Shown here: positions 11,908 through 36,000 of the stretch, piece by piece
Layout of the letters: each line of letters begins with the position of its first letter
How positions within the stretch are numbered: the stretch's first letter is position 1
Assembly (NCBI GenBank): GCA_020050685.1
Contig: JAGVKG010000065.1
Span: 17,984 to 81,983 of the forward strand
Reading direction: 5' to 3'
DNA from: Candidatus Obscuribacterales bacterium
GTDB taxonomy: Bacteria; Cyanobacteriota; Vampirovibrionia; Obscuribacterales; Obscuribacteraceae
DNA length: 64,000 bases
Notes under the pieces: generated by a model
Database searches by the model: none
Told to the model about the DNA's origin: nothing
Seen by the model: only the letters and a program-made list of their open reading frames with translations
Made by a program: the position numbers and the translations under genes

Positions 11908-12046
11908 CTATATATCGATTGTAGTGATGATTGTGGGCATATATCCTCTGGGACAACTTTGTTTTGGCAATGACTTACCAAGTGCAATCCAGGGTCCAGG
12001 CGGCAAGCCCAGGTAGGACTTGTAGAAGTGGATTTTGCGTGGAGCC

Positions 12047-15000
12047 ATGAAGCCAATTCGTTTACTAATGACTTTGATATTGTCGCTGCAGTTGGTTATG
12101 CCAATGGCGGCGTTTGCCGGGCCGTTTCGGGATAGTCACCCTCTCGGGGGAGAAGCCGGGACAGGTACGCAGTCAACTGGCGGACAAACAACATCCGGAC
12201 TGGACCCAAGTGCTTTGACTGGTCTAGCCGCGGTAAGTGCCGGCGCGCTCAATTTGGATTTGGGATCGACTGCGCGTACGTTTAGCCTCGAATCCTTGGG
12301 TGTGTCGTCATTGACCTTGAGGATGGCAGGGCAACATGTAACATTCTCTGCTTCTGACATGCTGACTCCGGCGCAATTTGTTGCGGCTCAGCAAGTGCTT
12401 TCTGGCAGCCGGCAGGCCCTGCGCCTTGGTGTAGATGGTAATGCAGTCGGTGGTGCTTTTAGTCTTCAGCCGAATCTGGTGCAAAATGTCGGTAATTTGG
12501 TGGTGCCGCAAAATGTCTCGGCATTGCTGGATGTGAGCACGGTTGCTTCGCTGAATCTGTCTGGTAATTTGGTGAATGCAGGCAAGCTTTATGCATTTTC
12601 TCAGACGGGTGAAACAGGCGCAGCAAACATTTCGGCGCTTAATTTATACAACCAAAGCGGAGCATTGATTTCTACTTTTGCTCCCGAGATTGGCCGTGCG
12701 GCTCAGCTTGCACCTGATAATGCTCTCCCTCTTGATCTCAATTTGTCGGCGATGGCAGATATTATCAATGCCGGTACGATTCTTAGCTCGGGCAATCTTT
12801 CGCTCAATGCCGGTGGTGTGATTATCAACCAGGCAGTTAGTGGCTCGTCGGCAGTGCCACTGATGCAGGCAGCTAACAATGTCAATTTGGTTTCCCAACT
12901 TGGATCAATTACTAATGCCGGTGTGATTGCCGCATTGGCCGGCAATCTAAATATTGGTTCGGCCCAGTTGAACAATATTGTGATCAACAATGCCGGCGGA
13001 TCGCTTGAAGCACTTAATGGTGCGATTTCCGTGCGTGATGCCAACTTTGTCGGCATGGCACATATCTATATCAATGGTGGCAATCTCTTGAGCAAAACTT
13101 TAGACCTTTATTCTGGAGAAGGTAAGGTCAAGGTGAATGTCGATAATTTGACCGGACACGTCAATGTGCGTGGTGGTGAGGCGCATGTTACAGCTTCAAC
13201 CAATGTTTTGACTATTGGTGATATTTGTCTGGTTGGTGATCCTAGCTTTTACAACACAACCGGCGATGTCTTGATTGATGGCGATTTGCAATTCAATGGT
13301 GAGGATCTGGCAATTGTTGCTTTTGGCGACATTATTACCGGCTCGAATGCTGGTTTGATTGATACCAGCAATGCTGCCGGCGATGGTGGCAGTATCACCA
13401 TGGTGGCTGGTGCAAATTTCACAGCACTTGCCTTAATTCCACCGCCCGCACCAGGTGAAGTGCAACCTCCCATACCGGATGCTAATGACGCAAACATTGA
13501 GCTGACGATTAATGACGGCTGTTGTGGTGGTGGCAAAATTGATCTTTCAACCGGCGGCGCTATTACTATGTTGAACTCTGCCTCCACTGGTGGTGATGGT
13601 GAAGGCGGTGATATTAATCTCATTGCTTTTGGTGGTGTTTTGGCTAATTCCGGAACAATCAAACTGCCATCGGCAGTGACAATTTCTGCTGGCGGTAATG
13701 GTGTTGGTAACAATGGTGATGTGATTGTTACGGCAGGGGCAATTCGCGGAAATGCGATTCAGATTGGCGGAATAAATACTGCAACTGGTGCGGAGGGTAG
13801 TGGTGTAGTTGATATCACGGCTGCACAGCCGACTGCTGTCGGTGTCACCATTGTCGGTGGAACTATAACTGGGGGAGCATTTGGTGCAGGCACTGCTAAC
13901 ACTGCCTCAATTAGCACTGGTTCAATTGCCGCCAATGGGGTAACAATTGATCTGACATCGGGAGCCAATGTGCTGGTTAACGGCTCGATCGTAAATAATG
14001 CGACAACTGCTGCTGCTGGTGGAACTGTAAACATCAACATCAATAGTTCGCTTGCTTTTCAAATTGGTGGCAGTCCGGCTTTCAATGGGATTACCGGTTC
14101 AATTTCGGCCAATGCCGGTGCCACATCAGGTGATGGCGGCGCTATTGCCATAATCAATGTTGGCACAGGTGGAATTGTCTTGGACTCTACGGCATTGCTT
14201 TCCGTAAATGCATCATCGGGAGCTGGCGGTGGTGCGGGGGGATTCATTCAATTGCGGGCATCAGGAACCGGTGCATCGCTCAGCTTAGCTTCCGGAACTT
14301 TAGCCGCGAATGCCACGACTGGGGCAGCACTGCCTGAGGGTGGTGAAATTATTCTTTTTGCAGCCGGAACAATTTCTGTGGTTGGCGCTACTGCATTGAC
14401 CTTGAGCGCAAACGCCCAAGGTATTGGTAATGGTGGTACGATTTCCGTTACAGCCCAAGGAACAGCGGCTGATTTAGCATTCGGTCAAGCAGCCGGACAA
14501 TTTATTATCTCTGCCCAAGGTGGGCAGGCAGCATCCGCTTCCGGAGACGGCGGTAAGATTACCTTTTTTGCGGGACGTAATCTGACAATCGATTCGACAG
14601 CAATAAGTGCAAATCCTTTAGGCAATAATGGCGACGGAGCAGATTTTACTATGACTGCTAGCGGATTACCTGGTGGACAGCTGGCAATTTCCGGCAACTT
14701 TGATGCATCAGCGGTTGGTAGTGGCACAGGCGGTACAATAATTGCTACATCGACAGCCGGCAGACTATCAGTAAGTGGCAATATCACTGCTAACGGTGGT
14801 GTAACAGGTGGTGGTGGTTCTGTTCGTTTGAGTCTTGCCTCCACTTCGCCATTTACGATTTTCAATGGCTCAACTAATAATGGCGTATCTGGCAATATCA
14901 CGGTCAATGGCGGTACCACTTCTGGTGACGGCGGCACAATTCTGCTTTCCGCTCAAGGTGGTGCAGTAAATATTGCTTCTGCTCAAGCCTTATCGGTGGC

Positions 15001-18000
15001 ACCCTTAGGCTCGGGTAATGGTGGCGGTTTGGACTTCACTGCTGCCGGCATCACAATTGGACCAGGCGTGCTTTCTGTGGATGCCCTGGGTAGCGGTATT
15101 GGTGGAACTATTAGTTTCAATAGTTCAAATGGGATTTTTGTCGACGGTTCAATTTCCGCAAATGGTGCTGGTATTGGTGATGGTGGCACGATCCTTTTTG
15201 TCAGTGAGTTTGCTTTGCCCTTCAATCTTGCTTTAGGCGAAAGCATAAATGGGATTAATGGTAATGTCAGTGCTCTGGCCGGAAATACGTCTGGCGCCGG
15301 TGGTCATATAAGTATGGCCAATAGCAGCGGCCTAAACCTGACTGCTAGCTCCAATATTTCTGTGGCGACCAATCAAGGAGATGGTGGCACCATTGCCCTT
15401 AGTTCAAGTGGTGGTGGAGTGACGGTATCATCCCGCACAATTTCAGTCGATGCGCAAGGCACAGGAAATTTCCAGGGTGGTGGTATCACCTTAACTGGTG
15501 CATTTGTTACAGTTACCGGCAGCTCGAGTCTCAACCTTAGTGCTAATGCCAGAGGTGCTGGCGATGGTGGCAGTATAGTGGTTGGCACTACTGCTTCTAC
15601 TTCCAATTTGCAAATTGGTAGTAATCGGGGACAGATAAGCATATCTGCGCTTGGTGGTCAGTTGGGTAATGCCGACCTAATTGGTGGTGCCGGCGGTAAT
15701 GTGACAATATCTGCCGGTCAGAATTTGACTGTCGATATGGCAAGCGTGTCAGTTGGTCCGCAAGGAAATAATGGTGATGGTGCACTACTTACATTTACTG
15801 CCGGCATTTCCAGTCTGGGCGCACTTTTAGTTAATGGCGATATCAATGTTTCTGGAGGCGGCTCTGATGGAACGGGCACGGGAGGTGGGGGAACAATTAC
15901 GCTATCCAGTGCTTCGAGCGAGACGATGGATCTGGCTTTAGGCGAAGACAAAAATGGTGTCAATGGTTTGTTGATTGCCAATGGTGGCACAGGTGGTGGC
16001 GCCGGTGGAGCGATTTCCGTTTCTAACTCATTATCCGGTGGTATCAATCTTGCCGATACGGCAAATCTTTCAGTCAATGCTGGACCAGGCGGTCTTGGTG
16101 GGGATGGCGGGTCAGTTTCTTTAGCTTCTGATTCTGGATTACTGACTATTAGTGGTGGAACAATCAATGTGGATGCAAAAGTTAGCGGGCAAGGCGGTTT
16201 AATTGAATTGCGAGCCCCTGAGTCTAATTTGATTGTTGCTGGTGTTAATCCTTTAATCTTGAGTGCAGATGCAATTGGCACTGGCATTGGTGGTACGGTT
16301 GCCGTGGTTGCTGGTGGCGATACTGCCGATCTGACAATTGGTAACACTAGCGGACAAATTAGTATATCGGCTCGTGGTGGCACTACTTCTGGCAATGGCG
16401 GAATCGTATCAGTATCCGCTGGACAAGATTTGACCGTCAACGCTGCACAATTGAACCTGGCGCCGCGTGGCACGACTGGTGCCGGCGGCACGCTAACGCT
16501 TGCAGCCGGCAATGGTGACGACGAAGGTAATCTACAAATCATTGGCAGTGTTAGTGTTAGTGGCACACAAGCTGGTGGCGGACAAGGCAATGGTGGCATT
16601 GTTTCCCTCTTATCTGATAGCAGCTCACCATTTGTCATTTCTAATAGTCCGAATGTTAATGGACTTGCGGGAAGCGTATCATCAAATGGTGGCACAACAC
16701 TTGGTGGTGGCGGCACGGTTTCTATAACCAATAGCGGTACTGGCGGTGTGACGCTTACTAATACTTCTTTAGTTACCGCTTCAGCATCGCTTGGTGGCGG
16801 CTCCGGGGGCAGCATTGGTTTGATTGCTCAAGCTGGAACACTGACTTTGCCGGGCGGTCAGATAATCGATGTTGATGGCGAAAGTGGTGGCACTTTTGAT
16901 GGCGGTATTGTTACTTTACGTGGAACTTCGCTTGAAATTACGGGCGGTCAGTCTTTCAGAATCAGAGCTAATGGCACGGCAACCGGCGCTGGTGGCAGAG
17001 TCGCTTTGATTTCTACCGGACTGTTTTCTGATATGGCGATTGGCAATGGTGCCAACCAATTTGAGATTTATGCCAATGGTGGTGCTACATCTGGAGATGC
17101 TGGTACAGTAGAACTTACATCAGGCCGTGGTCTGACTGTTAACCCCAGTTTCATGCAAGCAGGAGTTGGCCTTTCCGGAAAGGGAGCAACTCTTTCTTTG
17201 CGATCGGGAGCAACGGGCGATACTTCTAGTGCTGGCAGTTTACTTGTTACTGGTTCCATAAACGCAAATGGCACTGGCTTAGGTCAAGGTGGTGACGTCT
17301 TGCTATCATCGGCCGTTGGCAATTTGCTGGTTCAGGGCAGTGTTTCTGCCAGAGGCTTGGCTTTGGGAGCCGGTGGTTCTGTAACCCTAAATTCGAATTC
17401 GACTACTCAGTTTGTCGTCGGTGCTGGTGCTGTTACAAATGGTATTCAAGGCACTGTTGATACGCAAGCCGGTGTCGGTGATGGGGGCACGATTGAAATT
17501 GCTAATGCCGGCACTGGTGGCATTGGTATTCCCAGTTTGGCCAATCTGATTACGCAAGCATCTGCTGGCAGTGGCGGCACGGTGAATTTAGCTACCCTTG
17601 GAACATTGAATATTGCTGCCGGCACTTTGTCTCTTGATGCTCAAGGGGCGGGCAACTTCTCTGGCGGGAATTTTACTCTTTCTGCCTCGATAATTTCTGT
17701 TAATGGTGGCGGAACACTTAACCTCTCGGCCGATGCGCTTGGCACTGGAGCTGGTGGTGCAGTCTTTATTGAATCGACTAATTCATTGGCTGGTCTGGGA
17801 ATTGGTATTGCCACCAGCTTTGGACAGTTGACCGTTTCTGCTGAAGGTGGATCGGTGGGATCTGGCGCCGGCAATGGTGGCTCTCTTACAGTTAGATCAG
17901 GTGCTAATTTGTCAATTGATACTGCCGATATTCAGGTAGCACCGCGAGGCACCACCGGTAATGGTGCAAGCTTGAGCTTTACAGCTGGTATTGCTGGTGA

Positions 18001-21000
18001 AGGTGTTTTCAGCATGACAGGTGCTTTGAGTGCCGATGGGGTTGGTACTGCCGGTGGTGGCTCAGTATTTATTAGAACTACAAGTGCCAGTTCACTTAAT
18101 GTCGGTGGCACAATAACCGCCAATGCCGGAGCAGGAGCTGTGACTGGCACATCGCTGAATGGTGGCACTATCAATATTATCAACTCTGGAACTGGTGGCA
18201 TAACTTTCAGCAATGCCGATACGATTGCCGCTAATGCCGGTGGTGGTGGTAAAGGTGGCACTGTCAATATTAGTTCGCTGCTTGGACCAATCACAATTGG
18301 CGGTGGTTCTATTTCGGCAAACGGCAGTGGTTGCGGAGCCTTTGATGGTGGCACAATCAGTATGGTCTCAAACTCACTTGCGGTGCTGCCACTATCTGCT
18401 AATGCTTTGGTATTAACTGCCAATGCCGTAGGTAATGGTAAAGGCGGAACCGTGAGCGTTACAGCAGCCGGTGCAGCTTCCAATATTGTTGTTGGTAATG
18501 GTGCCGGTCAAATATCGATTTTTGCTCGCGGCGGAACTGCCGGCTCAACTGCCGGTGATGGTGGCTCAATTACTCTTTCTGCGACTGGAGACGTGAATGT
18601 AACAAATTCGGCATTTTTAGATGCCAGTCCGCAAGGCGTAGATGGCAATGGCCAAAATCTGACACTGACAACTCAATCTGTGACTGGCAATCTCAGTGCA
18701 GATGGTGTTGGTTTTGGTTCCGGTGGTACGATAACCATTACATCGCCGACAGACAATGTAATAGTAGCTGGATCAGTAACCGCAAATGGTGGCACTTCTG
18801 GCAACGGTGGGACAATATCGATTACGTCAGATAGCGACAGTGCTTTTGTCGTCGGGCCAGCGGCAACTGTCAATGGCGTGACTGGCGCCTTGACTGCTAA
18901 CGGTGGAGCGAGTTTTGGCAGCGGCGGTTCGGTGACAGTCACAAATAATGGCGGCGGCGGTGTCAGTCTTTCTGCAGCAGCGGTTCTTTCTGTTGCTGGT
19001 TCAGCTGCCGGCGGTGCCGGTGGTTCTTTAACAGTCGCTGCGCCAATTGGCACGTTGACATTGTCCGGTGCTAGTCTTTCTGCTAATGCTGGTGGCAGTG
19101 GGCCATTTAATGGTGGCAAAATTGCCCTTTCCGGCCGGATGCTAAATACGGGAGTGGCTGCAACCACGACGCTTAGTGCCAATGCGGTTGGCACGGGTTC
19201 TGGTGGGTCCATTAGTTTGGTTGCCACAGATACGACCGCTAATTTAGTAGTTGGCAATGGGGCTGGACAGGTAACAATTTCGGCCACTGGTGGCACGGGC
19301 GGTTTGACACCATCAACTGCCGGCAATGGTGGCACTGTTTTACTTTCGGTTGGTGGCAATCTTACTATCAATCCCGCTTCACTAACCGTTGGCCCACTCG
19401 GCACTAATGGCAATGGTGCTAGCGTGACTTTGGCAGCCGGCACAGCAGTAACCAGCTCTCTGACAAAAACTCTGACTATCAATGGCACCCTTAATGTAGC
19501 CGGTGCGGCTGGCGGTAGTGGTACAGGCGGCGTAGCTAAATTAACTGCCGGATCAAGCTCGGGCGATGGTACAACATTTGGTACTGTGGTCATAGATGGC
19601 GGGATAAGTGCTCAAGGTAGTGGCACTGGAAATGGTGGCACTGTCAGTGTCAACTATTTGGCTAGTTCAACTTTTAATATCGGCACTGGTGCTGCTGGGG
19701 CAAATGGTATTGCCGGTAGTATAAACGCAGCCAGTGGTGCTACCGGTGCAGGCGGATCAATAAGTATTGTCAATTCTGGGACTGGCGGGATTAATGTTAA
19801 TGCTGCATCAGATCTTTCTATTACTGCTTCCGGCGGTGCTGGTGGTGCATTAACTGTTAGCGCCCCCGGTGGTGCATTGTCATTTGGTGGTGGCACAGTT
19901 TCGGCAAGTTCTGCTGGTTTTGGCGACTTTAGTGGTGGCACTATCGCTTTGACCGGTCAAACGTTTTCAATTTCTGGCTCGGCTTTGATTTTAAATGCCA
20001 ATGCAGTTGGACTTGGTAATGGTGGCACAATTTCCGTCTCTGGATCTGGCGGAGTATCGAGCCTGACGGTTGGCAATGCGGCAGGAGAATTGGAAGCATT
20101 CGCTCGCGGAGGCTCGGCGCTATCGGCAGCAGGAAATGGTGGCTCGATCACAATTTCGATGGGCGGCAGTCTGACTGTCAATTCAACTTTCTTGAATGCT
20201 TCACCACTTGGCACGAACGGCAACGGTGGCAAACTGAGTTTAAGCGCTGCAAGCCAAGCATCCGGTTCATTGACAGTGACAAATGGTTTGGATGCTTCGG
20301 GCAATGGTTCCGGTATCGGTGGCACGATAGTTGTGCAATCGAGCGGAGCCTTGCTTGGTTTTAATGGCACGTTGAGCATAACTGGTGCAGTTAATGCTTC
20401 CGGTGGTACGACAGCTTCGGCTGGAACAATTTTGCTTTCGGCTAATGCTACCAGTGCAATTTCTGTTGCCGGTGCCTTGACAGCAAATGGTGGTGCGACA
20501 TCCGGCAATGGTGGGACCATTAATGTGACGAACTTTGGCACCAACGTTGCCAGTGGCACCACACTTTCATCGGCACCATCTTCTTCAGCAGTTGGTTCGG
20601 GAGCCGGCGGATCTATTAAGCTGATTGCCAACCAAGGAACATTGTCCATAGCCAATGGCACTACCTCTGCTAGTGCTGCCGGAGCCAATGATTTCAATGG
20701 TGGTCAAATTTTGTTTGCCGCTTCTTCCTTGAGCATCACCGGTGGCTCTTTCCTGACACTTAATGCCAATGCAGCCGGTGGTGGTGCTGGTGGATCTGTT
20801 TCAGTTTTAGCAACTGGTGCAACATCGGATATTTCAGTTGGTAATGCAGCCGGCAATATAAGAGTGTTTGCTACTGGTGGCACCGGTGGATCAACCATCG
20901 GCAATGGTGGCAGGATTGCTTTGACGGCAGGACGCGACTTATTGATTGATTCCACGCATCTTTCTGCTGATGCTCTCGGTACAAATGGCAACGGTGGCAA

Positions 21001-24000
21001 TCTCCGTCTGACTGCCAATGGCACTGCTACTTTATTGGTTTCTCATGGCATTATTGTTACTGGTTCACTGGCGGCAGCTGGAAACGGTGATGGCTCTGGT
21101 GGTCTTATTTCACTTATGGCTCCTCTCGGTAATGTGTCTCTTACAGGCTCATTATCTGCAGCCAGTGGTGCTGGTGTCGGCAATGGTGGTTCAATAGTAG
21201 TGACTGCGGGTAGTCCGCAAGTATTTACTATCGGAACTGCAGCTCCGTCAAATGGCGTTGGCGGGGGCATCTCTGCAAGTGCTGCCGGCACTAGCGGCGC
21301 TGGAGGCACTGTCACAATTACCAATGCTGCAGGTATTGCCTTTGCGGCTCTCAGCAGTGTTACTGCCGATGGTGGCACCATCGGTAGTGGTGGTAATGTC
21401 ACTTTGTCTGCTTTGTCTGCCGCACTTAGTATAGATGGGGGCACAATTTCTGCAGTTGCTCATGGAGCCGGTGCATTTTCCGGCGGACAGATTTCCTTAT
21501 TTTCCTCATCGTTTACTACTTCTGGATTCGGAGTTGGTCCTTTATCGCTTTTGGCCGATGGTTCCGGCACAGGTGCAGGTGGATCTATATTGATTAAGGC
21601 CTCGGGAATAACTGCTGATTTAACAGTCGGTGGTGGCATAGGAGATATTTTGATTAATGCCCGCGGCGGCTCTCTCCTCTCGGCTGCCGGTGATGGCGGT
21701 TCTGTGACAATTGAGGTTGGCAGAAATCTTACCGTTAACACTGCCTCGCTTTTGATAGGGCCTTTGGGCAACAATGGCTCTGGCGCCAATATTAGTTTGC
21801 GTGCTAATGCTTCCGTATCTTGTGATACTGCTGGTACATTAACAGTTACGGGAAGTCTTAATGCGTCCGGAGTTGGCATTGGCAATGGCGGCAATCTTGA
21901 GTTGATTTCAGCTGCTGGCAATCTTTCAATTACCGGCAGCGTTTCGGCTAATGCGCAAACAACTGGTAATGCCGGTTCAATCACCATGCTTTCCAATAGT
22001 GTCAGCCCATTTTTGGTTGGTGCTGCGATCACTCCGCTAAATGGTATCACAGGAACAATTTCTGCCAACGCTGGTTCGGTTAAAGGCGCAAGTGGTTCAA
22101 TTGCAATTACTAATGAGGGCATTGGTGGTATTGAATTTAGACCGGGCTCGAGCGTTTCTTTGGCTGCATCTGGAGGCGGTGGCTCTGGTGGCACTATCAC
22201 CATTGATGCTAATGCCGGTCCATTGTCTATTGCTGGTGGCACGCTTTCTGTCAATGCAAGCGGAGGTGGTGCCTTTAGTGGTGGCACAATTTCTCTTTCT
22301 GGACTAGAGCTGGTTTTGATCACTGGCTTGGGTACTGGACCTTTAAACTTGTTAGCCAATGGTGCAGGTACAGGTGCTGGTGGAAAAGTAAGTATTGCCC
22401 TTATAGGCGCCTTGTCTGATTTGGAAATTGGCTCAGGTTCGGGGCAAATATCCATTAGTGCTTTGGGTGGAGGAGCAGGAGGAAATGGTGGCATTGTTAA
22501 CCTTTCAGTGGGCCGCAATTTACTTGTTGATCCATTAGCGCTTTTAGCTAATCCGCAAGCCGGTTCTGGTAGCGGTGCGACAATAAATTTGGTTGCCTCA
22601 CAGGCCAGTGCGGGCGACCTAGTCGTTAGTTCCAGTCTCAGTGCAAACGGCATTGGTGATGGTGCCGGTGGTCTATTGAATTTGTCGTCCGCCAGAGGCA
22701 ATGTTTTAGTTTCCGGAGCGCTATCTGCTAATGGATCCGGTGAAGGTGATGGTGGCAGCGTTACCGTAACTTCTGCATCGGCTCTAGATTTCTCTGTCGC
22801 CAATGCAGCCATTGTGAATGGCTTAACGGGATTGATTAGTGTAGCTGCCGGTGCCACATCCGGAAATGGTGGCACGATTGTCCTCACGAATGCTGGCAGC
22901 GGCGGGATTACATTAGGTACAACTGCCAGTTTGAATGCAGACGCGTCAGCTGGTGTTGATGGTGGTGCTGGTGGCACGATCAAACTATTAGCTGGCAATG
23001 GTCTTGTGGAGATTTTGTCTACATCTCTTTCGGCTAACGGCACAGGCACTGGTGCATTTGATGGTGGTGTGATTGTTGTTACGGCTGGAACGCTTTTCGT
23101 CAATGGTGCCAGCGCCCTGGCAATTAGTGCCAACGGTTCAGCTTTGGGTAATGGTGGTTCAATCGAATTGGGCTCTACTGATACGACCTCAAGTCTTAGT
23201 ATCGGTGCCAGCCATGGCAGCATGACTTTGACGGCTACTGGTGGTTCTGGCGGATCTGCTACCGGTAATGGTGGCTCGGCAACAGTTTCAGCTGGTGGTG
23301 GCATTGCACTAGATCCAACTTCATTGGCCCTTGATCCTCAAGGCACAAATGGTGCTGGAGCAACAATGAGCTTTACATCATCCCAAGGTAACATTCAAGT
23401 TTTCGGTAATTTGTTTGCCAACGGCGTTGGTGAGGGAAATGGTGGCACAATTTCTCTCTCGGCAACGGCCAACAATCTTTTTGTCAGTGGTTCGCTTTCG
23501 GCTAGTGCTACAGGTGAAGGGAAGGGGGGAGCAATCACTCTCACTTCCAACAGTCAAGCTAATTTTACTGTTTTTTCCGGCGCCACGGCAAATGGTGTCA
23601 TGGGTACAATCTCGGCTACAGGCGGCGGCACGGGTGGAGATGGTGGCACAATCGTTATTAGTAATCAAAATGCAACGCTTGGGGCCGCTGGAGTAACTTT
23701 GGCCAATGCCGGAGTGATTTCGGTTTTTGCATCTCCAGGTGGTGGTTCAGGTGGCATCATTGCTATCAGCGGACAAAGTATCAATATTGGTTCCGGACCG
23801 AATCTTTCTGCTAACGCCTCTGGTAGCGGGCAATTTGTTGGCGGCTCTATAACATTGATAAGCAACAGTGAATTGTTTGTCAATACCGGCATCACGGCAA
23901 ATGGTGGCACAAATGGTAGCGGTGGATCTATTGAATTGGTTTGCAATAGCATTTTTGCCTTTACACTTGGGCCGCAGGCTGAACAAAACGGTGTGACCAA

Positions 24001-27000
24001 TTTGGTTTCAGCTCAGGCTGGCAATGCGGGTGGCAACGGTGGTGAAATTGTCGTCACCAACAATGCAGCCGGTGGTATCACTTTGACAAACACCAATAAT
24101 ATATCTGTTCAGGCTTCACCTGGTGGCGGTGCTGGTGGCACGATTGATTTTGAAGCACCGGTTGGTGTTCTATCCATTGCTAGCGGCAACTTGTCCGCAT
24201 CAGCTGGTGGCGCCGGTTCATTTTCTGGTGGTGAAATTACTTTTGATGCGTCGTCCTTAGTTGTGACCGGATCGACATTCCTGACCCTATTTGCCGATGC
24301 TTCCGGTTCAGGCAATGGTGGAACCATTATAGTTAAGACCGAAACTGGCAGTGGTTTGACCATCGGTAATCAGACTGGCAATCTGAGCATTTTTGCCCGC
24401 GGTGGATCTGCTGCTTCTGTGGCTGGTGATGGTGGCTCAATCGAAATTGCCAGTGGTGGCAATCTAACCGTGGATCCACAAGCACTGCAAGCAGGACCAA
24501 GGGGAGTAAGTGGTAAAGGTGCAACATTGAAGCTGACTGCCGGCGTGACCACGCAAGGCACCTTATTTGTCTCTGGTGATTTGCTAGCCGATGGTGTCGG
24601 CTCAGCAGATGGTGGCAGCATCGCACTTTCATCGCACAATAATTCAGAGTTTATTATTGGCTCCAGTGCTGTATCAAGCGGTGTACAAGGACGCATTTCG
24701 GCCCAGGCGGGAACTATAGCCGGGGGCGGTGGAAAAATTCTAGTCTCAAGTACTGGCACGGGTGGAATCAGTTTGCTTGATTTGTCCGATCTCTCGGTCA
24801 CTCCGGTATCAGGAGCTGGTGGTACCATAGAACTTCTATCCAGTGCCGGCACATTAACCATTGCTTCGGGAACACTTTTTGCTAGCGCTTCCGGTAGTGG
24901 CAACTTTAACGGCGGACAGATTAACCTTGGTGCTGCCGGCTTTAGCATCGCCGGTGGTGGCGCTTTGAATTTACTGGCCAATGGCAGATTCGAAGGTAGC
25001 GGCGGTGGCATTACAATTGCAATCAGCAACGATCAAGACTTAACAATCGGCAATGGCGCACAACAACTGACGATATCTGCTACTGGTGGCATAGCCGGAT
25101 CTGTTAACGGCGACGGCGGACATGTGACTATAAATGTTGGTGGAAATTTGACTGTCAATCCGCAATATTTTACGGTTCAGCCGCTTGGAGATGAGGGTGG
25201 CGGTGCGGAAATTGAATTGGGCGCTGGACGTGCCGGCAGCGGCAATTTGTTTATCAACGGTATCTTGGATGCCAGTGCTGTCGGAGATCGCGATGGTGGA
25301 TCCATAATACTAACTAGTGCTAGCGACACACCATTTACAATAGGGGCGACAGCCACAGTAAACGGTGTGTTTGAAGTGCGCGCCAATGGTGGCGCAGTTG
25401 TCGGCGATGGAGGAGCAATTGTTATTGGCGCCGAAGGGTTGGGCGGAATTGCCATTCCTTCTCCAGATAAAGTGTCGGTGCGCGCTGGAAGCATTGGCAT
25501 CGGTGGAACAATCGCCTTGCTGGCTGATTCCGGTACGGAGGCGGCACCGCTGACAATCGGGGGCGGGACTTTAGCAGTTGATGCTAGAGGCGCTGGTGAT
25601 AATGATGGTGGCGTTCTGATTTTGAGAGGTTCGATATTGACGGTTACCGGGCCAAACGCCTTGTTGCTTTCAGCAAACGGTAGCGGTGATGGTGTTGGTG
25701 GTACCATCAGTGTCAATCTCAGAGCCAGTACATCAGATCTGACAATTGATAATGCTTCTGGTGGCATTACCTTATCCGCCACTGGCGGCTCTTCCGGTTC
25801 AACTTCCGGCGATGGCGGCGTTATTGTCATGTCAGTCGGACGAGCACTTTTTGTTAATGCTGCCGCTGTTAACGCTCAAGCATTGGGAGTTAATGGTGAA
25901 GGTGCACTACTGACGTTTACCGCAGGCAATCTTTTGACTGGCGGTCTAAGTGTGCTTGGTAATCTTAGTGCCAATGGTGTAGGCACTGGAGCGGGTGGTT
26001 CAATTACACTTTCTTCCAAAACAGCAGCCGTTTTTGTTTCCGGCAATGTTTCGGCTAGTTCTACTGGTTCAGGCAGTGGTGGCACAATTAGCATATCCTC
26101 GGTTAGTGGACTGGGAGTTGCATTTACAGTTGATTCCTCGGCGACGACAAATGGTGTGACAGGGCAAATATTGGCGGAACAAGGTCCATTAAGCTCCGGA
26201 GAGGGCGCGCTTGGCGGGTCCATAACTATCAGTAATTTCGGAGAAGGAGGCATAACACTTCCTGACCCGGCCAATGTTTCTGTTGTCTCCACACAGGCGG
26301 CTTCTGGTGGTGGCACAATTGTTCTTGATGCGGTAGCAAATTCTCAGGCACCCGGTGCACTGACAATTGGTGCCGGAGTACTTAATGCTGCTGCAAACGG
26401 AGCCGGAGATTTTGATGGTGGTACGATTTCTCTCATTGGCTCATCTCTTTCCATTACCAACGGCGGCTTTTTGACAATGGCAGCCGGTGCAGTCGGTGCT
26501 GGTAATGGTGGCACGGTTACCGTGACTGTCAGTGGCTTGACGTCAGATCTGACAATAGGCACAGCTGCCGGACAATTTATTGCCGATGCTTCCGGTGGCA
26601 GTGCCGGATCAATTGCCGGTAATGGCGGAGCAATCAACATTTCTGCCGGTAGAAATTTGACGGTCAACGATACTTCGTTTGTCCTAGTTGCACCACGTGG
26701 TGATAATGGCAATGGTGGCGCTTTGCGATTGTCCGCTGCTACCGGCGGCAGTGGTACGTTGACAATCGGTGGTGCTAATCCGATTGTTGCCAGTGGTGTA
26801 GGCGAGGGAAATGGTGGAACGGTTCTCTTGAGCTCCAACAGCACGACTGCCTTGACAGTGCCTGCCGTTATTACGGCAAATGCGGGAGATAAAGCAGGCA
26901 ATGGTGGCGTAATTACAATTCGAAATTCCGGTAGTGGTGGAATTTTATTTGGTTCTGCATTGATCAATATTTCGGCCAATGGTTCTAAACGGACTGGCAA

Positions 27001-30000
27001 TGGAGGGACAATTAGAATTGAAGCGCCAGTCGGACCTGTGACCATCGGTGGTGGCGACATATCTGTAAGTTGTAGTGGATGCGGTGTGCAGAATGGTGGT
27101 GAGATTTCCATTACCGCACAATCTTTGGTCGTATTAGGTGGCGTTGGTACCGGACCTTTGAATTTGAAAGCCAATGCTGCTGGTGCTGGAAATGGCGGTA
27201 CAATTTCAGTCACTTCAACCAGTGCAACAACGGATGTGACGATTGGCGGCTTAACCGGACAAATTACTGTCTCTGCTACTGGCGGCACTTCTATTCTTGG
27301 TATACCGACATCAATTTTTGGTGATGGTGGCAAAATCAATTTAACTAGTGGCAGGAATTTGGTAATTGATCCGGCCTTCTTAAATGCTGACCCGCTTGGA
27401 TTAAATGGTAATGGAGCTCAAATTACTCTCATTACTAATGGTGCAAATGGCACGATTAGTGGCGACCTGAGCGCAGATGGCGTTGGTAAAGGCTCTGGCG
27501 GCCTAATCCGAATTTCTGCACCTAATGGCAATGTTCTAGTTACCGGCAGTCTTTCTGCCAATGCAGATCAAGGGGCAACCGGTTCAGGAAATGGTGGCAC
27601 TGTAGAACTCACTTCGTCCAGTTCCACTTCCTTTGTTATAGATCCGACTGCCACAACTAATGGTGTACAAGGAACGATTGCAGCAATTGCAGGTTTATTG
27701 GCTGGCAATGGTGGCACCATTTCGGTTGTAAATTCCGGCACGGGTGGTATCACACTGGGAGCCTTGGCGGCCTTAAATGTAAATGGCTCAGTTGGCGGTG
27801 GCTCTGGTGGCACGGTAACAATAAGTGCTGCTAAGGGTGGCGCAGCTACTGGGCAAATAACTATTGCCGGTGGTTCGATTTCTGCCAATGGACAAGGTGT
27901 AGGTGTTTACAATGGCGGCAAGATTGATATCTTTGGACTTTCCTTTGTCAATTCCGGTGTGACATTTGCCACATTGTCTGCCAATGGTTCTGGATCTGGC
28001 AATGGAGGGCAGGTAAGCGTTGTGGCGTCAAGTGATACTACTGACATTACTATTGGTTCGGCCGGAGGCAATTTGGAAATATTTGCCCGCAGCGGATTAA
28101 CCAATGGCAATGGTGGCTCAATCACAATTACTGCCGGACGCAATCTGACAATTGATCAATCAGTAATGCTTGCTGATCCAAGAGGTACAAACGGCAATGG
28201 TGGCACTTTGAATTTAACGAGCGGTGCTGCTTCTACTAATCCAGCTGCCGACCTGAAAATAAATGGTATTGGCGATCTGGATGTAAGTGGTGCGGGTGTT
28301 GGTTCCGGTGGTGTACTAAAAGCAATTTCTAATACTGGCGACTTGCTGATTGAGGGCAACATTATTGCAGATGGCGGCACAGTCGGCGATGGTGGATCCG
28401 TGACACTGAGTTTTAGAAGCAATAACAATTTTAACGTCGGCGGTGTGGTCACCACCAATGGTGTTGATGGATACATTCATGCCAATTCCGGATCTGTGAG
28501 CGGCAGTGGTGGAGTAATTGGAATCAGCAATCTCAATACCACATTAGGTGCTGGCGGACTGAACATTCCAGATGGAACCTTTCTTTCCGCTTCAGCTTCC
28601 GCAGGCGATGGTGGCATTATTTCCGGATCAACTCCTGGTGGCACGATTACTGTTGGCAGTGGCACCATGACAGTCTCAGCCGGAGGAGTTGGCAGTTTCA
28701 ATGGTGGAGAAATTTCATTTGCCGGTGCTGCATTTACGATCACAGGTGGTGCACCATTGATTTTGACTGCCGATGCGGTTGGCTCTGGCAATGGTGGCAA
28801 AATCAGTATTATCGGACAAGCATTGGCCTCCAACTTGACTGTCGGCAATGTTGGTAATCAGTTAGAAGCATTTGCTCGCGGTGGCTCTATTGCTTCCGGT
28901 AGTGGTAACGGTGGCTCAATTACAATAAAAGTTGGCGGTAACTTGACGGTCAGCGATACAAGCTTGATCGATGCAGGTCCGCGCGGCACCAATGGTAATG
29001 GTGCAAGTTATATTCTGGCTGCCGGCAATGCTGCCAATTCATCCTTGAGTGTTACTGGTTCCTTAAATGGATCCGGCGTGGGTGTTGGCAACGGCGGATT
29101 AGTCTCAGCCACCTCTGGTTTAGCAGGCCAGTTTACCGGTAGCCTGACAATTACGGGTGGTGTGACTGCTAGTGGTGGCACCAATGGCATAGGTGGTGAA
29201 ATTACCTTGGTTGCCAACTCTGCGGTAGCACTTTCTGTTGGCGGCACTTTGACTGCCAATGGTGGCACTTTATTAGGAAACGGTGGATTCATTTTCGCCA
29301 CCAATCCGTTGAGTGGTGGCATTACATTGGGTGGTGTACCTTCCGCAGCCGGCTCGACCGGTGGAGGCAATGGTGGATCAATTGAATTGACTTCAACTCT
29401 TGGCGCTCTGAGTATTCCGGGAGGTGGAGCCGGATCTCCAGCTTCTGCCAGCGCCGGCGGAGCCGGTACTTTTAATGGTGGCGAAATTAGATTGACCGGT
29501 ACTGCGCTCAATGTAACCGGGGGAACATTCTTGGCGCTAACTGCCAACGGTGTCGGGGCAGGTAATGGTGGCATAATCGTAGTGAATGCATCAACTGCCA
29601 GTCTGACCGTCGGTACTTTAGCTGGAAACATAACCTTGTCGGCAACCGGAGGTACTGGTGGCGGCACGCCATCCAGCACTGGTGATGGTGGCACATTATC
29701 ATTGTCTTCCGGATTGAATATCACAGTAAATGCAGCTAGCAGCAACTTTGTTGCTAACCCACTTGGTACCAATGGTAGAGGCGCGAATTATTATTTGGTG
29801 GCAGGCTCTGCCGGTGTGGGATCTATTGCGGTCAACGGTGGCGGACTAGATGCCTCTGCCAATGGTGATGGTTCAGGTGGAAATATTCTGGCGCGCTCCT
29901 TGACTGGAAACGTCTTTATTGCCGGCGATGTGCTTGCCGATGCTGGTTCGGGAACAGGCAATGGTGGCACCATAACCGTGTTAGCCAATAGTGCCACTGC

Positions 30001-33000
30001 CTTTGCAATTTTACCTGCGGCTCTAGTTAACGGCATACAAGGAACAATTAGCGCCGATGCCGGTGGTGTTCAAGGAGATGGCGGAATAATTTCGATTACA
30101 AACCTTGGTATTGGTGGTGTGCGTTTTGGTGCTGGAGCCGATATTACGGTAGATGGATCATCGGGAGCCGGTGGTGGCTCAGGTGGTGCACTGACGATTG
30201 CTGCTCCAACAGGAACAATTGCTGTTGCCGGTGGATCGTTGTCTGCCAATGGTGGCGGACCAGGAGTGGACGGTGAATTTAGAGGCGGGCAAATTCAATT
30301 AACTGCTTTGCTAATTCAAAATGACCCTCTTGCATCTGCACCACTTACACTCACAGCTAATGCTGCCGGGCGTGGATTGGGAGGACAAGTCTCAGTTATT
30401 GCCACTGGTTCGGAAGCAGACATAACAATTGGCACCGCCGCCGGTGAAATTAGTATTTCCGCAACTGGCGGTTCTCTCGGCTCGCTTGATGGCGCAGGCG
30501 GAATCGTTGTTGTTTCAGCTGGCAGAAATCTTACTGTTCATACTGCTGCTCTCATTGCTAACCCAGAGGGTACAAATGGTGCCGGGGCAATATTTAAATT
30601 GGCGGCGACAACAGCTGTTAATAGTGGTGAGCTGATAGATTGCGATGTGCCAGGAACTCTAGCAATCATCAAGGATATCGGTTTTGATAGCATTGATGCT
30701 GCTGGTCGTGGGGATGCAGATGGTGGCATTATTATTCTCTCGGCAATTGCCGGTAATGTGACTGTTGCTTCTGAGCTAATAGCTGATGCCGGCAGCGGTA
30801 TAGGTAATGGTGGCACAATCTCGATTACATCCAACAGCCCAAGTCCGCTTTTGCTTGAAGACACTGTTAGTGCAAAAGCTGGCGGGGTGAGTGGCAATGG
30901 TGGCACTATTTCTGCAGTCAACCTTGGTTCTGGTGGTATTAGTTATACGGCATTGACGGCAATTACTGTCAGTGGATCAGCCGGTGGTGGCAATGGCGGT
31001 TCGGTTAGTTTGATCGCCTCTGGTGCCAATGCCCCGATTACTCTTGCCACAAGTTCGATAGCTGTTAATGGTGGTGCAAGCGGAAATGGCAATGGTGGCA
31101 GAATAACTATCACCACGTCTCTTCTGAATATGGTTCAGACTGCACCAACTTTATTGAGTGCTAACGGCTCGGGTAATGGTAACGGTGGTGTCATTTCTGT
31201 AACCGTGGCTGGAAACAATGTAATCATGGGTACTGCTAATGGCGAGTTGATGATGCAAGCTACCGGTGGCAGCAGCGGATCTAGTGCAGGCGATGGTGGA
31301 ACTTTGCGTGTTACTGCCGGATTAAACATTGGCATACTTGATGTCGGTCTGGTTCAAAGTGTCTTCTATGCTGCACCACAAGGTCTGAGTGGCAGTGGTG
31401 CTAACCTCAGTATTATTTCCGGAGTTTCCGGCCCATCAGATATAGTTGTCGGTGTGCTTGGCGGTCTGAATGGCGGAGCAGTTGGTGATGGTAATGGTGG
31501 TTCTGTGGTTCTCAATGCGGGTAATTCGACCGCGGTTGCTGGATTTGGTGATATTACTGTGACCGGCGGACCAATCATTACTAGTGCAGACAAAAATGGC
31601 AGTGGTGGTTTGCAATCGATTACCGCTAATAGCATGAATACTTTGGAAGCAATTGGCGGTGGAAGTTCAAATGGCGGGACAAACAGCGGAAATGGTGGCA
31701 CCATTTTAGTGACCAACACCGGCACTGGCGGAATTCAAATAGATAACACTGCCGTATTTGAAGTGAAGGCATTCAATGGTGCGGTTGGCGGATCGGGCGG
31801 CGTTATCACTTTCTCTGCTGCTACTGGTGCCTTGCGTGTCCAAGGTGGAAGCATTGATGCATCTGCCGGTACACAAGGTAATGGCGGGCAGGTGCAAGTC
31901 ACGGCACTTTCAATAATTAATGCAACTGGTGTTTCTGCTCCACTGACGATAGTGGCGGATGCCGCAGGTACGGGCACAGGCGGAACAGTATCAATTACGG
32001 CAACGTCAACTACTGCTGACTTGGCAGTTGGTACATTGCCGGGACAACTGACTATTTCGGCCAAAGGCGGATCAGCAAATTCTGTGGGTGGCGATGGCGG
32101 CAAGATTTCACTATCGACAGGACGTAACTTGAGCGTCAATGCAGCCGAACTTGCTGCCCAACCATTAGGTACAAATGGTGCTGGCGCAGCGATTAGTTTA
32201 GTTGCTGGTACTGGCCCACAAGGTCGCTTACTTGTGACAAATGGCAATATCAATGCCTCAGGCAATGGCATCGGCAAAGGTGGTTCGATTACACTTGTTG
32301 CAGCCAGCACCACCAATTTCATTCTCGGACCGACCGCTAACAACAATGGCATGACTGGACTTCTGTTAGCTAATGCTGGTGCAACAAGCGGTGATGGTGG
32401 CAGCATTTCGATAACCAATCGCAACAGCACTAACGGTCAAGGTGGTATCACAATTTCCAGTACCGCCAATCTTTCGGCCAACGCCTCTCTCGGCGGTGGT
32501 AAGGGCGGTAACATCTCGATTTCGGCAGGGGACCAATCCACTTCCTCAACCGGCATGCTGACAATTGCTTTCGGAACATTAGCGGTAAATGCCGGTGGAG
32601 CAAGTGGTAATTTTAGTGGTGGCACGATTCAGCTTGCCGTTTCAGGCATCACTGTTGGCGCCGGTGGAGCACTGGTTCTCTCAGCCGATGCAGTTGGCAC
32701 TGGTAATGGTGGCACTGTTAACGTCACAACTTTCGGCAGCTCGAGCAATATAATAGTTGGTCGCGCTTCACAACAGATTGCCATCTCTGCAAAAGGCGGC
32801 TCTCTTGGTTCCACAAGCGGCAATGGTGGAACAGTTGCATTGACGTCTGCCAGAAGCATAACAGTGTATTTGTTCGATCCCGCGATGCCCCTGATTCCGG
32901 CAGCCATAACTGCAGATCCGCAAGGCGCCAATGGAAATGGTGCAACCATATCATTAATTGCAAGTACTGCTGGTGTGGGTAGTCTATGGGTTGGTGGTGT

Positions 33001-36000
33001 TAATGCAGTACCTATAGATTTGTCTGCTAATGGAGTAGGAGCCGGAAGTGGTGGCACGATTACTCTAAGTCAAAACAGCTCATCCTTGTTTAACATCTCA
33101 TCGACCAGCACATTTGTTGGTGTGGTCGGTACTATATCTGCCAACGCCGGCGCGGCTACCGGCAAGGGTGGAAGAGTCGTGATTTCCAATGCTGGTACTG
33201 GTGGTATCACCTTGGCAGACCCGGCATTGATATCTGTGGCTGCTTCTCTCGGCGGTGGCAATGGTGGATCTATTTCTATGTCGTCCACTGCTGGAACGAT
33301 AACGATAGCTGGTGGCACGCTGGCTGCAGATGCATCTTCTTCTGGTGATTTCCAAGGTGGTGCAATTACAATTAATGCCGCTAAGTTCAGCATGACTGGA
33401 GCTACTGCTCTTACCTTGAGCGCCAAGGCTAACGGTATTGGCAATGGTGGCACGGTATCCGTGACAACAACAGGGCCGTCTGCTCCCAACCTAACTATCG
33501 GAACACTGGCTACCAATTTGAGAGTTGTTGCGCCTGGCGGTACCAATGGTGGCGCTGGTGGAATAGTCTCAGTTATATCAGCGGCCCGTTTGATAGTTGA
33601 TCCATTAGGCTTGGATATCGCACCGGCTGCCGGCAAGAATGGTAATGGTGCATCGCTCACGCTGACAACCACTGCGGGTAATTTATCCATAACTGCAAGC
33701 TTGAATGTCAATGGAGCAGGCACAGGAAGTGGTGGCACAATGTCGCTTTCTTCGGCTAGCGCCATTTCTGTTGCGGGCAGTTTAAGCGCCAATGGTGGCA
33801 CAAGTGGAAGCGGTGGCTCGATTAGTCTTTCGACAAGCAGCACCGCACCATTTTTGTTGACAACAGGCACCTCTTCTAACAATAGCCTGACCGGAACAAT
33901 CACAGCCGATAGAGGCGGTTCAATATCTTTGAATATGGCATCAAGTGGTGGTATCACGGTTGGTGCTTTGGCAGTACTTGCGGCTAATGGAATTGCATCA
34001 GGTGGTGCTGGAGGTTCAATCACCATTGTTACAACTGGAAACTTGACGGTTGGTGGTGGCGTGCTGAACGCAAACGGTCAAGGAACCGGCGTAGCCAATG
34101 GCGGAGCCATTTCCATCACTGCATTGAGGGTGATGAATGGTGGCGGAGTGGCGATGGCGCTGAACGCAAATGCCTCGGGTATTGGCAATGGTGGCAATGT
34201 TGCGGTTACAGCCACTGATGCAACAGCAAGCTTTACAGTTGGAGCCGGTGCCGGACAGTTTGCAATTTCTGCCACTGGCGGATCCGTTGCCTCGCTTGCC
34301 GGAGATGGTGGCACAGTTACATTACAAGCCGGAAATAGCTTGACTGTGAATACCGGATCGCTTAGCGCAGGTCCAATAGGTGCGCATGGCAGTGGTGCGA
34401 CGCTAATCTTTAATGCCGGAAGTGCCGGTTCAGGAACACTGTTTGTCAACACTGGCGGAACGGCAGGAATCCTAAGTGCCAATGGTGTTGGTCGCGGTGA
34501 TGGCGGGACTATCAGTCTGACATCGAGTCATGGCACAGCATTTACCATCGGCGCTGGTGTCGTCAGTCAAGGTGTGAATGGCATTATCAGTGCTAACGCA
34601 GGGGCTGTTGATGGTAATGGTGGATCGATTAGTGTCTCAAATAACAATACATCCGGTGCAGGTGGTATCACTGTATTAGCGGTTAGCAATCTGTCCGTCG
34701 CACCATCACTAGCTGGAGGCGATGGTGGTTCGCTTACCTTCAATTCTCCCAATGGCACAATCAGAATTGCATCCGGAGTGCTATCGACATCGGCAGCTGG
34801 CCTCGATTCCTTTGATGGCGGAGAGATAAGAATCAGTGGACTGGCATTTGTGGTGACTGGTGCAGGAAGTCTTATGCTTGCTGCCAATGCTACTGGTGCA
34901 GGTGATGGTGGCTCTGTCGAAGTAAAGACAGTTGGTGCTTCTGACCTGACGATGGGAGGTGCTGCTGGACAATTCACAGTGCAAGCAACTGGTGGCACCG
35001 GTGGTATTGATCCTTCTGATGGTGGTGACGGTGGCTCAGTAACAATTGTTAGTGGACGTGGTTTGACTATTAGCAACACGAGCAATATTCTCGCCGGACC
35101 GCTTGGCACAAATGGTGATGGCGCTGACATTACATTGAGTGTATCTTCTGTATCGTCACCAGGATCTGGATTCATGAAGATATTGGCTGGTGACTTGAAT
35201 GTTAATGGTCGTGGTGATGGCGATGGTGGCACTGTCATTTTGACAGTAAATATGAATGGCGGATTTGGCGTTGGTCTAGGCGTACTGGGAACTGCAAACG
35301 GAATGGTAGGTACAATTTCGGCAAACGGATCTGGCACGGGCGCAGGCGGAGAAATAAATGTAACAAACGCCTTTGGTTCGCTCACACTGGGAGCCTTAGC
35401 CAATATTTCTGCCAATGGTGGATCTACATCCGGTGCTGGTGGCACGATATCCATGAGTGCGACAAATTCGACTATGACAATTGTGGGAGGCAATACACTT
35501 TCTGCTAATGGTACTGGCGCAAGTGGAAACTTTAACGGCGGCGAAATTACTTTGTCTGCATTGACAATAGCCGGCAACGCTTTGACTCCAATGACCATAT
35601 CGGCAAATGGAGCCGGTGCCGGAGCCGGTGGAGCCGTATCGATAACCAGCACTAATAAGTCGTCTAATCTCAATAATAATTTCCTGACCATCGTGGCTAA
35701 TGGCGGCTCAACAAATTCTGGCGCCGGTGATGGCGGAGTTATTACGATGTCATCCGGTTCGCAACTAATTGTTGATTTATCCCGAATAACTGCCGGACCA
35801 CTGGGTGCTGCCGGACTTGGTGCGACTATTAAACTGACGAGCGGCACTGGCGGCTCTGGTGCCCTTACAGTTAGCAACGCTGTGACTGCTGGTGTCCTGC
35901 CTGCTTCTATTGCCCTAACTTCCTCCAGTGCAATTTTGCAAAGTGGTGTCGTGCCAATAGCGGCTGTTAGCTTATCGCTAACTACAACCGGATCGGGATC

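Follow-up and report, generated by a model that had tools for sequence, protein, structure and literature searches.

A 22-kb array of eight-coil super-repeats as the probable shaft of a giant secreted beta-solenoid protein from an uncatalogued Obscuribacterales family

The window analysed here, a stretch of 64,000 nucleotides from a draft genome of a Candidatus Obscuribacterales bacterium (GenBank assembly GCA_020050685.1, contig JAGVKG010000065.1, positions 17,984 to 81,983 of the forward strand), contains a giant gene, most of which is taken up by a degenerate repeat array of 22 kb. We consider it quite probable that the product of this array forms the shaft of a fibre, a giant secreted beta-solenoid protein that belongs to an uncatalogued family of the Obscuribacterales. 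Eight distinct coils would stack into a super-repeat of 250–260 aa, a seven-coil variant without coil 5 being common, and about 28 super-repeats would in turn stack head to tail to form a rigid rod. The copy number of the super-repeats would set the length of the shaft, and selection would keep the solenoid scaffold as well as the fixed order of the eight distinct coils.

The gene (12047..38539, forward strand; 8,830 codons) lies within a single open reading frame (ORF; 12035..38539) that is stop-free across 8,834 codons and contains all the coordinates at which a first-pass annotation, made from the sequence without database searches, had noted repeats. Translation probably starts at the ATG at 12047, which is preceded by GGAG at a distance of 4 nt, and the stop codon is TAG (38537-38539). 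The protein is rich in glycine (21%), alanine (13%), serine (12%) and threonine (11%) and is acidic, with 370 Asp and Glu residues as compared with 182 Lys and Arg residues. Its parts follow one another in the order signal peptide, 570-aa head, 7,333-aa repeat array and 876-aa tail.

The array was delimited with a hidden Markov model (HMM) built from seven units, which gave in-register domain E-values from 1e-14 to 1e-93. It extends from aa 626 to 7958 and comprises 27 in-register units of 226-274 aa (mean 252.3, sd 14.4, ~757 nt) together with four partial units. This agrees well with the nested periodicity of about 28 degenerate super-repeats of about 250 aa that had been described in the first-pass annotation. 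The layout of the gene and of the array is as follows.

12047..38539, forward strand: giant gene; mature product of ~8,806 aa, ~815 kDa, pI 4.2.
13910..35908, forward strand: repeat array, ~22 kb (unit HMM).
13910..15469, forward strand: irregular start of the array (unit HMM, coil occupancy).
13910-14329, forward strand: partial unit, coils 5-8 (unit HMM).
14336-15094, forward strand: first full unit (unit HMM).
15005-15469, forward strand: partial unit, coils 4-8 (HMM envelope).
15470..23833, forward strand: consecutive units, starting at 15470, 16187, 16895, 17657, 18341, 19106, 19928, 20693, 21476, 22274 and 23057; coil 5 is absent from those at 15470, 16187 and 17657.
23834..24220, forward strand: half unit of 129 aa, an F-x-G-G landmark followed by coils 5-8 (HMM, coil occupancy).
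24221..35530, forward strand: fifteen consecutive units, starting at 24221, 24905, 25601, 26411, 27089, 27908, 28697, 29471, 30278, 31088, 31877, 32612, 33350, 34094 and 34811 (HMM, coil occupancy); the seven-coil variants start at 24221, 24905, 26411, 31877, 32612, 34094 and 34811.
35531..35908, forward strand: terminal half unit, coils 1-4, which closes the array (HMM, coil occupancy).

Individual landmarks proposed beforehand are recovered in this layout. A copy measured as 255 aa corresponds to the unit 18341..19105, which has the same length and differs in phase by 12 nt; a half-length unit placed at about 23,830..24,215 is the half unit at 23834..24220; and the first units, described as irregular, turn out to be a partial unit, a full one and a second partial one.

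The canonical unit consists of eight G-x-G-G coils of ~33 aa each, which begin at model positions 1, 31, 70, 99, 129, 158, 197 and 229 and in each of which an alternating aliphatic strand follows the coil start. All coils can be written as variations of one template: G-x-G-G, then x-[IV]-x-[LV]-x-A, a turn, x-L-x-V-x-G, and x-L-S-A-x-A-x-G. The spacing of the coil motif along the protein has modes at 28-39 aa, and about 223 coils are present in total. The earlier estimate of about seven solenoid-like turns per unit is correct for the ten units that lack coil 5, but not for the canonical unit, which has eight coils and is represented by 17 units. Beneath the eight-coil unit there is a weaker echo of a four-coil half unit (~129 aa): the peaks of the profile autocorrelation at lags 127-129 and 99 lie just over the maximum of 200 column shuffles, while those at lags 28-32 lie over the shuffle mean only. 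Given the signal at lags 127-129, the eight-coil unit appears to have arisen long ago by the doubling of a four-coil block, and such halves are what the four partial units represent.

The periodicity is also apparent independently of the HMM. When windows of 260 aa were searched with BLAST against the whole protein and matches of at least 180 aa were kept, as an equivalent of a self dot-plot, 1,237 off-diagonal matches were obtained. They fall into discrete bands at offsets of 225-270, 480-540 and 720-795 aa and onward, centred near 255, 510 and 770 aa and separated by near-empty gaps, which amounts to a consistent period of about 750 nt. Every window between residues 650 and 7670 yielded 15-28 long matches, and minor bands shifted by about +125 aa are accounted for by the half unit at 23834..24220. 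The period was not visible in a global BLOSUM autocorrelation of the whole protein, where it is blurred by the variable length of the units, and self-BLAST of the whole protein returned the identity match only.

AlphaFold2 was run on two tandem units, with an alignment of 24 consecutive unit pairs. The model obtained (pLDDT 94.2, pTM 0.93) has an all-beta structure in which each ~33-aa coil contributes about three short strands, and it runs unbroken across the unit boundary, the coil-initial strand recurring 16 times at a spacing of 28-40 aa. The solenoid-like character of the turns, previously read from the sequence, is thus reproduced in the prediction, which supports the assignment of the shaft to the continuous beta-solenoid or parallel beta-helix fold class. 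A Foldseek search of the shaft model against PDB and BFVD gave no match at E<=0.001 and retrieved only generic beta-helices; the weak, non-significant neighbours, each of them a fibre or a surface protein with a beta-helix, include the secretion domains of EtpA and HMW1, Ag43, RsaA, the beta-helix of MpAFP (a Ca2+-dependent antifreeze protein) and tailspikes. Beta-solenoids usually rise by ~0.48 nm per coil. At this assumed rise, the ~223 coils would correspond to an estimated shaft length of ~107 nm, and the rod would reach an estimated ~130 nm if the head and the tail were solenoidal as well.

The units are old. Their pairwise identity amounts to 40% in protein (30-51%) and to 49% in DNA (42-55%), in accordance with the divergence noticed at first reading. 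Broken down by codon position, identity is 0.53, 0.62 and 0.34, the last value being close to the 0.30 expected by chance at position 3, and aligned Gly-Gly pairs use an identical codon in 38% of cases vs 34% by chance; at the synonymous sites, saturation has thus been reached. Exact direct DNA repeats in the 22-kb array are 20 nt long at most, the corresponding maximum in codon-shuffled controls being 15-17 nt. Tandem Repeats Finder, whose longest period of 500 nt is shorter than the ~757-nt unit, reported no array of a few hundred nt, and a DNA repeat search recovered only motif families of 24-56 nt with 60-86% identity. By contrast with the third codon positions, 62 columns of the unit, 41 of them glycines, are conserved in at least 70% of the units, among them residues specific to individual coils (Pro94 in 89%, Asn206 in 85%, Ser169 in 81% and Phe173 in 74%).

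The same unit is found outside this gene. A profile of the 27 units, in which a full-length match covers positions 1-258, detected paralogues on contigs C34, C52 and C57 of the source genome and, in other genera, a protein of 10,205 aa with 24 full units (genome G024), one of 8,894 aa with 16 (G018) and a 4,473-aa ORF at a contig end with eight (G022); a further full-length match lies in a 6,329-aa ORF from the second family of the order (G025). In 13 genomes representing other orders of the class, the eight-coil unit was not detected. Behind the head, the G024 protein has the identical succession of partial, full and partial unit, and the G018 protein a looser one (a partial unit, a truncated unit and two partial units). 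No unit-by-unit colinearity could be detected between the window array and the giants of G024, G018 and G022. Judged from these comparisons, the unit type is older than the genera, but the arrays are not matchable copy for copy. Trees of the units have a star-like shape, their terminal branches measuring ~0.5 changes per site; the units cluster only weakly by protein, and a pattern of block duplication was not seen. Taken together, the saturation of position 3, the columns that have been kept and the presence of the unit in several genera support an old array under purifying selection, as had been proposed, rather than a recent expansion. The suggestion that divergence of the DNA damps recombinational instability is consistent with these data.

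It is conceivable, though on the unlikely side, that the eight-coil period is simply the fossil of the unit that was amplified. Any generic stack of coils would then suffice, and the super-repeat would have no present meaning. The star-like tree would fit a single old burst of amplification, and the template common to all eight coils, the tolerance of seven-coil variants and half units and the lack of unit-by-unit colinearity between genomes would all be readily understood. This scenario is, however, difficult to reconcile with the fact that the 27 units have retained the order of the coils and residues peculiar to single coils, for example Pro94, Asn206, Ser169 and Phe173, despite synonymous saturation, as have the full-length matches from other genera and from the second family. 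Moreover, just four of the 1,237 long self-matches have offsets of less than one unit (105-135 aa, a half-unit shift), and none is found at 28-39 or 60-70 aa. That coil identity has been kept after saturation and across genera would argue for some constraint on the eight-coil period.

What has been conserved bears on the role of the array. The conserved positions comprise turn glycines, aliphatic positions that we read as inward-facing and a few coil-specific residues, whereas most other positions vary freely. From this pattern, the array would most likely be a rigid, length-setting stalk or spacer and not a string of catalytic or ligand-specific domains; possibly it offers a multivalent surface in addition. 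Alternatively, each super-repeat may itself be a binding module, the ligand being for instance Ca2+, bound at the G-[ND]-G-G turns, or else a periodic polysaccharide or a partner fibre, so that the array would be a multivalent adhesin or matrix-binding surface and no inert spacer. Of 152 strict motifs, 83 do have Asn or Asp after the first turn glycine, the pI of 4.2 marks a strongly acidic protein, and the structural neighbours of the shaft include a Ca2+-dependent beta-helical antifreeze/adhesin domain (3p4g). That match is non-significant (E=1.3), however, and neither an RTX/HemolysinCabind or other Pfam match nor a period of 9 or 19 residues was found. Together with the free variation of the positions outside the turn glycines, the aliphatics and the few coil-specific residues, this makes a binding module a doubtful interpretation.

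The stalk reading is embedded in a family context that is defined by the regions on either side of the array.

12047..12118, forward strand: putative Sec-type signal peptide MKPIRLLMTLILSLQLVMPMAAFA, then GPFRDS (recognized by eye from the sequence).
12182..13909, forward strand: conserved family head, ~570 aa (head HMM; predicted beta-helix).
35909..38536, forward strand: C-terminal module, 876 aa (tail homologues in paralogues).

Cleavage of the putative signal, again placed by eye, would occur between MKPIRLLMTLILSLQLVMPMAAFA and GP. The segment 12119-12181 encodes GPFRDSHP and then a Gly/Thr/Ser linker; most paralogues have an FRE(R/S)R(E/A)-like sequence directly after the predicted cleavage site. 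This FRERR-like motif may be a second processing or recognition site. The AlphaFold2 model of the head (pLDDT 85.2, pTM 0.85) is nearly all beta and has no significant neighbour in PDB, the best being TPS domains at E ~1. The C-terminal module is composed of Thr/Ser/Ile/Asn-rich repeats of a type unlike that of the shaft, a conserved distal block, the motif MIVDTGE (38453-38470) and a 22-aa acidic tail. Its post-array part (35909-37900) aligns with the regions behind the arrays of the G024, G018 and G022 giants at 32-37% identity, which indicates that the junction is a conserved feature of the family and not specific to this gene.

An HMM of the head detected 39 ORFs in the source genome, a draft of 70 contigs and 4.4 Mb that is 98.7% complete. 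In all of them the head is at the N-terminus, and together they occupy 433 kb, or 9.8% of the genome. They range from ~1,500 to 14,495 aa, with a few cut at contig ends, including one of 14,113 aa. Many stand in tandem pairs or triplets, for example at C34:129561-173045, C1:86693-129031, C52:50069-80746 and C19:77879-103708. When the N-termini were compared, all 39 showed a signal-like sequence, followed in most cases by the FRERR-like motif. The common architecture is a head, variable Gly/Ser/Thr/Asn-rich solenoid arrays in which several repeat types are mixed, and a conserved C-terminal ending; unlike these mixed-type paralogues, the window protein is built almost purely of one repeat type. 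A short ORF related to the head, at C13:136797-139118, lies at the end of its contig and continues into a long, perfect repeat of the form (DPPGPP)n.

Most paralogues share one of two endings. Type A consists of [hydrophobic][IV]DTG[DE] followed by 15-30 acidic residues and was found, with a strict pattern, in 16 paralogues (at least 16 of the 33 complete ones); type B, ...S(L/V)VSL...AEKLIKMAACL..T..HGPY, was found in the same way in seven. The window protein, with its C-terminus ...EMIVDTGESGLGDDESGDEWTVLESVSAK, belongs to type A, and both types occur among public homologues. The context of the DTG in type A resembles the aspartic-protease signature. The conserved endings had no match in the libraries searched; they could be signals for sorting, processing or anchoring. 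When the surroundings of the 39 paralogues were searched for a conserved partner gene, only TPR and two-component proteins were seen to recur: within 4 kb of family members, TPR-repeat proteins were encountered in nine cases and histidine kinases or response regulators in eight (for example C53:198988-200127, C34:176391-177605 and C52:48303-49892). This recurrence may be due to chance, both families being common.

Among the 24 sampled genera of the same family, 12 yielded the head, as did all three genomes, belonging to one genus, from a second family of the order; the 13 genomes sampled from other orders of the class yielded none. In relatives, open frames with the head reach 16,984 aa. A public library contained 1,336 clusters of heads (50% identity) at E<1e-3; the sole named genomic relative is a Candidatus Obscuribacterales metagenome-assembled genome, the homologues in NCBI carry the name 'hypothetical protein [Candidatus Obscuribacterales bacterium]', and JGI labels some relatives 'filamentous hemagglutinin'. 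Sequence searches of head, unit and tail against Pfam, NCBIfam and PDB, of five homologues against Pfam and of a 1,335-aa stretch of the array against NCBIfam all gave no match, and no description of this protein family was found in the literature searched. On this evidence the family appears to be uncatalogued and restricted, as far as it was found, to the order of Candidatus Obscuribacterales (class Vampirovibrionia, or Melainabacteria).

It is tempting to speculate that the eight-coil period, of about 3.8 nm, acts as a vernier or ruler that keeps paralogous fibres of graded length in register with each other or with a periodic component of the envelope, the FRERR-like motif and the VDTG-acidic ending marking an undescribed route of export or anchoring. 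We regard this as a quite improbable conjecture. If it were true, about 10% of the genome would be devoted to a fibre coat that has so far gone unseen, made up of dozens of paralogues whose lengths range from 1,500 to over 14,000 aa.

Sec export, an extracellular or surface location and a role as stalk or adhesin are what we infer for the window protein from its architecture, the signal peptide having been recognized by eye. A similar architecture, with a signal, a beta-helical head, a long beta-helical shaft and a distinct C-terminus, characterizes TpsA-type (type Vb) exoproteins and CdiA-like toxin-delivery fibres, of which the repeats described here might be the equivalent of the FHA repeats. 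In line with this idea, the secretion domains of EtpA, HMW1 and HpmA rank first among the structural neighbours of the head as well as of the shaft, though without significance, and the 'filamentous hemagglutinin' label given to some relatives points in the same direction. Yet no Pfam match to TPS, Fil_haemagg or toxin families was obtained, the genome yielded no match to the ShlB or TPS families (a search for which the controls proved uninformative), and the coil measures ~33 aa here as opposed to ~19-20 aa in FHA. The C-termini, furthermore, are not polymorphic but of two conserved types, and they have no recurrent immunity-like gene as a neighbour. Membership of this class is thus highly improbable.

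Several of these points also weigh against a secreted fibre shaft, which is proposed from sequence comparison and structure prediction. Scans with Pfam and NCBIfam revealed no TPS domain, autotransporter barrel, RTX match or known sorting signal in the protein, and no ShlB-type (PF03865) or TPS-type (PF05860) match in the source genome, the control genomes being equally silent. There is no dedicated partner gene beside the paralogues, TPR and two-component proteins being the only ones that recur. The protein may instead be periplasmic or part of a sheath, and the handedness, cross-section, rise per coil and supertwist of the shaft are assumptions.

An artefact (recent expansion, assembly duplication or Gly-rich low complexity), which might have been suspected from the 21% glycine and the 70-contig draft, can be considered refuted by the DNA identity of 42-55%, the longest exact repeat of 20 nt and the lack of a tandem DNA array, as well as by in-register E-values down to 1e-93, discrete offset bands, a confident AlphaFold2 model and the presence of the unit in other genomes.

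The genes that flank the giant gene have housekeeping functions: two LD-carboxypeptidase paralogues, an acyl-CoA dehydrogenase, nnr and an OppD-like ATPase. Even the closest of the sampled genomes are far removed, nnr reaching an identity of 56% at most. In one relative examined (G006), the region C43:571221-591220, which corresponds to 7604-40323 of the window, retains the linkage of the acyl-CoA dehydrogenase, the tandem LD-carboxypeptidase pair and nnr. No orthologue of the giant gene was found at this syntenic locus; the gene for the large subunit of glutamate synthase (gltB) sits where the window has an AhpD-like gene and the giant gene. The position of the giant gene is therefore not conserved.

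The array presents a hierarchy of three levels, in which coils of ~33 aa are combined into four-coil halves and these into an eight-coil unit repeated about 28 times, and this hierarchy persists although the DNA has lost its repeat character. It may be of use for studying genetic stability in very long repeat proteins and for designing beta-solenoid rods of defined length. The family to which it belongs is large and uncharacterized, with more than 1,300 clusters, no Pfam model, about a tenth of a genome devoted to it and frames of up to ~17,000 codons in relatives. It occurs in a major uncultured, non-photosynthetic sister group of the photosynthetic cyanobacteria, and knowledge of what the fibres do could inform on the lifestyle of the Obscuribacterales. 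Their function, and the way in which an acidic rod of 815 kDa leaves a diderm cell, could reveal a new envelope structure or export route.

Among known systems, the closest class would be that of the TpsA-like fibres, judging from sequence features and predicted fold, but without the parts of a type Vb system having been found. TpsA exoproteins (FHA/FhaB, HMW1, EtpA, HxuA, CdiA) are likewise very long, Sec-dependent, beta-helical rods of short degenerate repeats. The window protein differs from them by its three-strand coils of ~33 aa, its G-x-G-G turn and its eight-coil super-repeat. A TPS domain (PF05860, with NPNL/NPNGI motifs) was not detected, the head matching no family in Pfam and NCBIfam; Fil_haemagg repeats were not detected by Pfam in the unit or in five homologues, the coil period here being 28-39 aa; and a TpsB partner (PF03865, Omp85), the gene for which is usually adjacent in such systems, had no match in the source genome, but the same search was silent in all 14 control genomes. 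Type Va autotransporters (Ag43, pertactin, IgA1 protease) have a comparable beta-helical, passenger-like rod, and Ag43 and IgA1 protease are among the weak structural neighbours. The window protein is about ten times longer, however, and ends in an acidic, soluble-looking tail, and its C-terminal 879 aa gave no match in Pfam or NCBIfam, including the 12-strand translocator barrel (PF03797). RTX proteins and Ca2+-dependent beta-roll or beta-helix adhesins (MpIBP region IV, RsaA) share with it Gly- and Asp/Asn-rich turns, the nature of an acidic giant surface protein and a weak structural neighbourhood. They differ in that the window protein has an N-terminal Sec-like signal instead of a purely C-terminal type I secretion signal; GGxGxDxUx nonapeptides (PF00353) were not found by Pfam, and there is no period of 9 or 18 aa.

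A more remote parallel is offered by titin and nebulin, in which distinct modules in a fixed order form a higher-order repeat along a molecular ruler. These proteins are eukaryotic and are built of Ig/Fn3 domains or of 35-aa helical modules; the nested periodicity is therefore an analogy only, without homology, and a ruler role for the window protein is conjectural. The protein finds its place most readily within the giant-fibre family of the Obscuribacterales itself, of which it has both the ~570-aa head behind a signal peptide and the type A ending.

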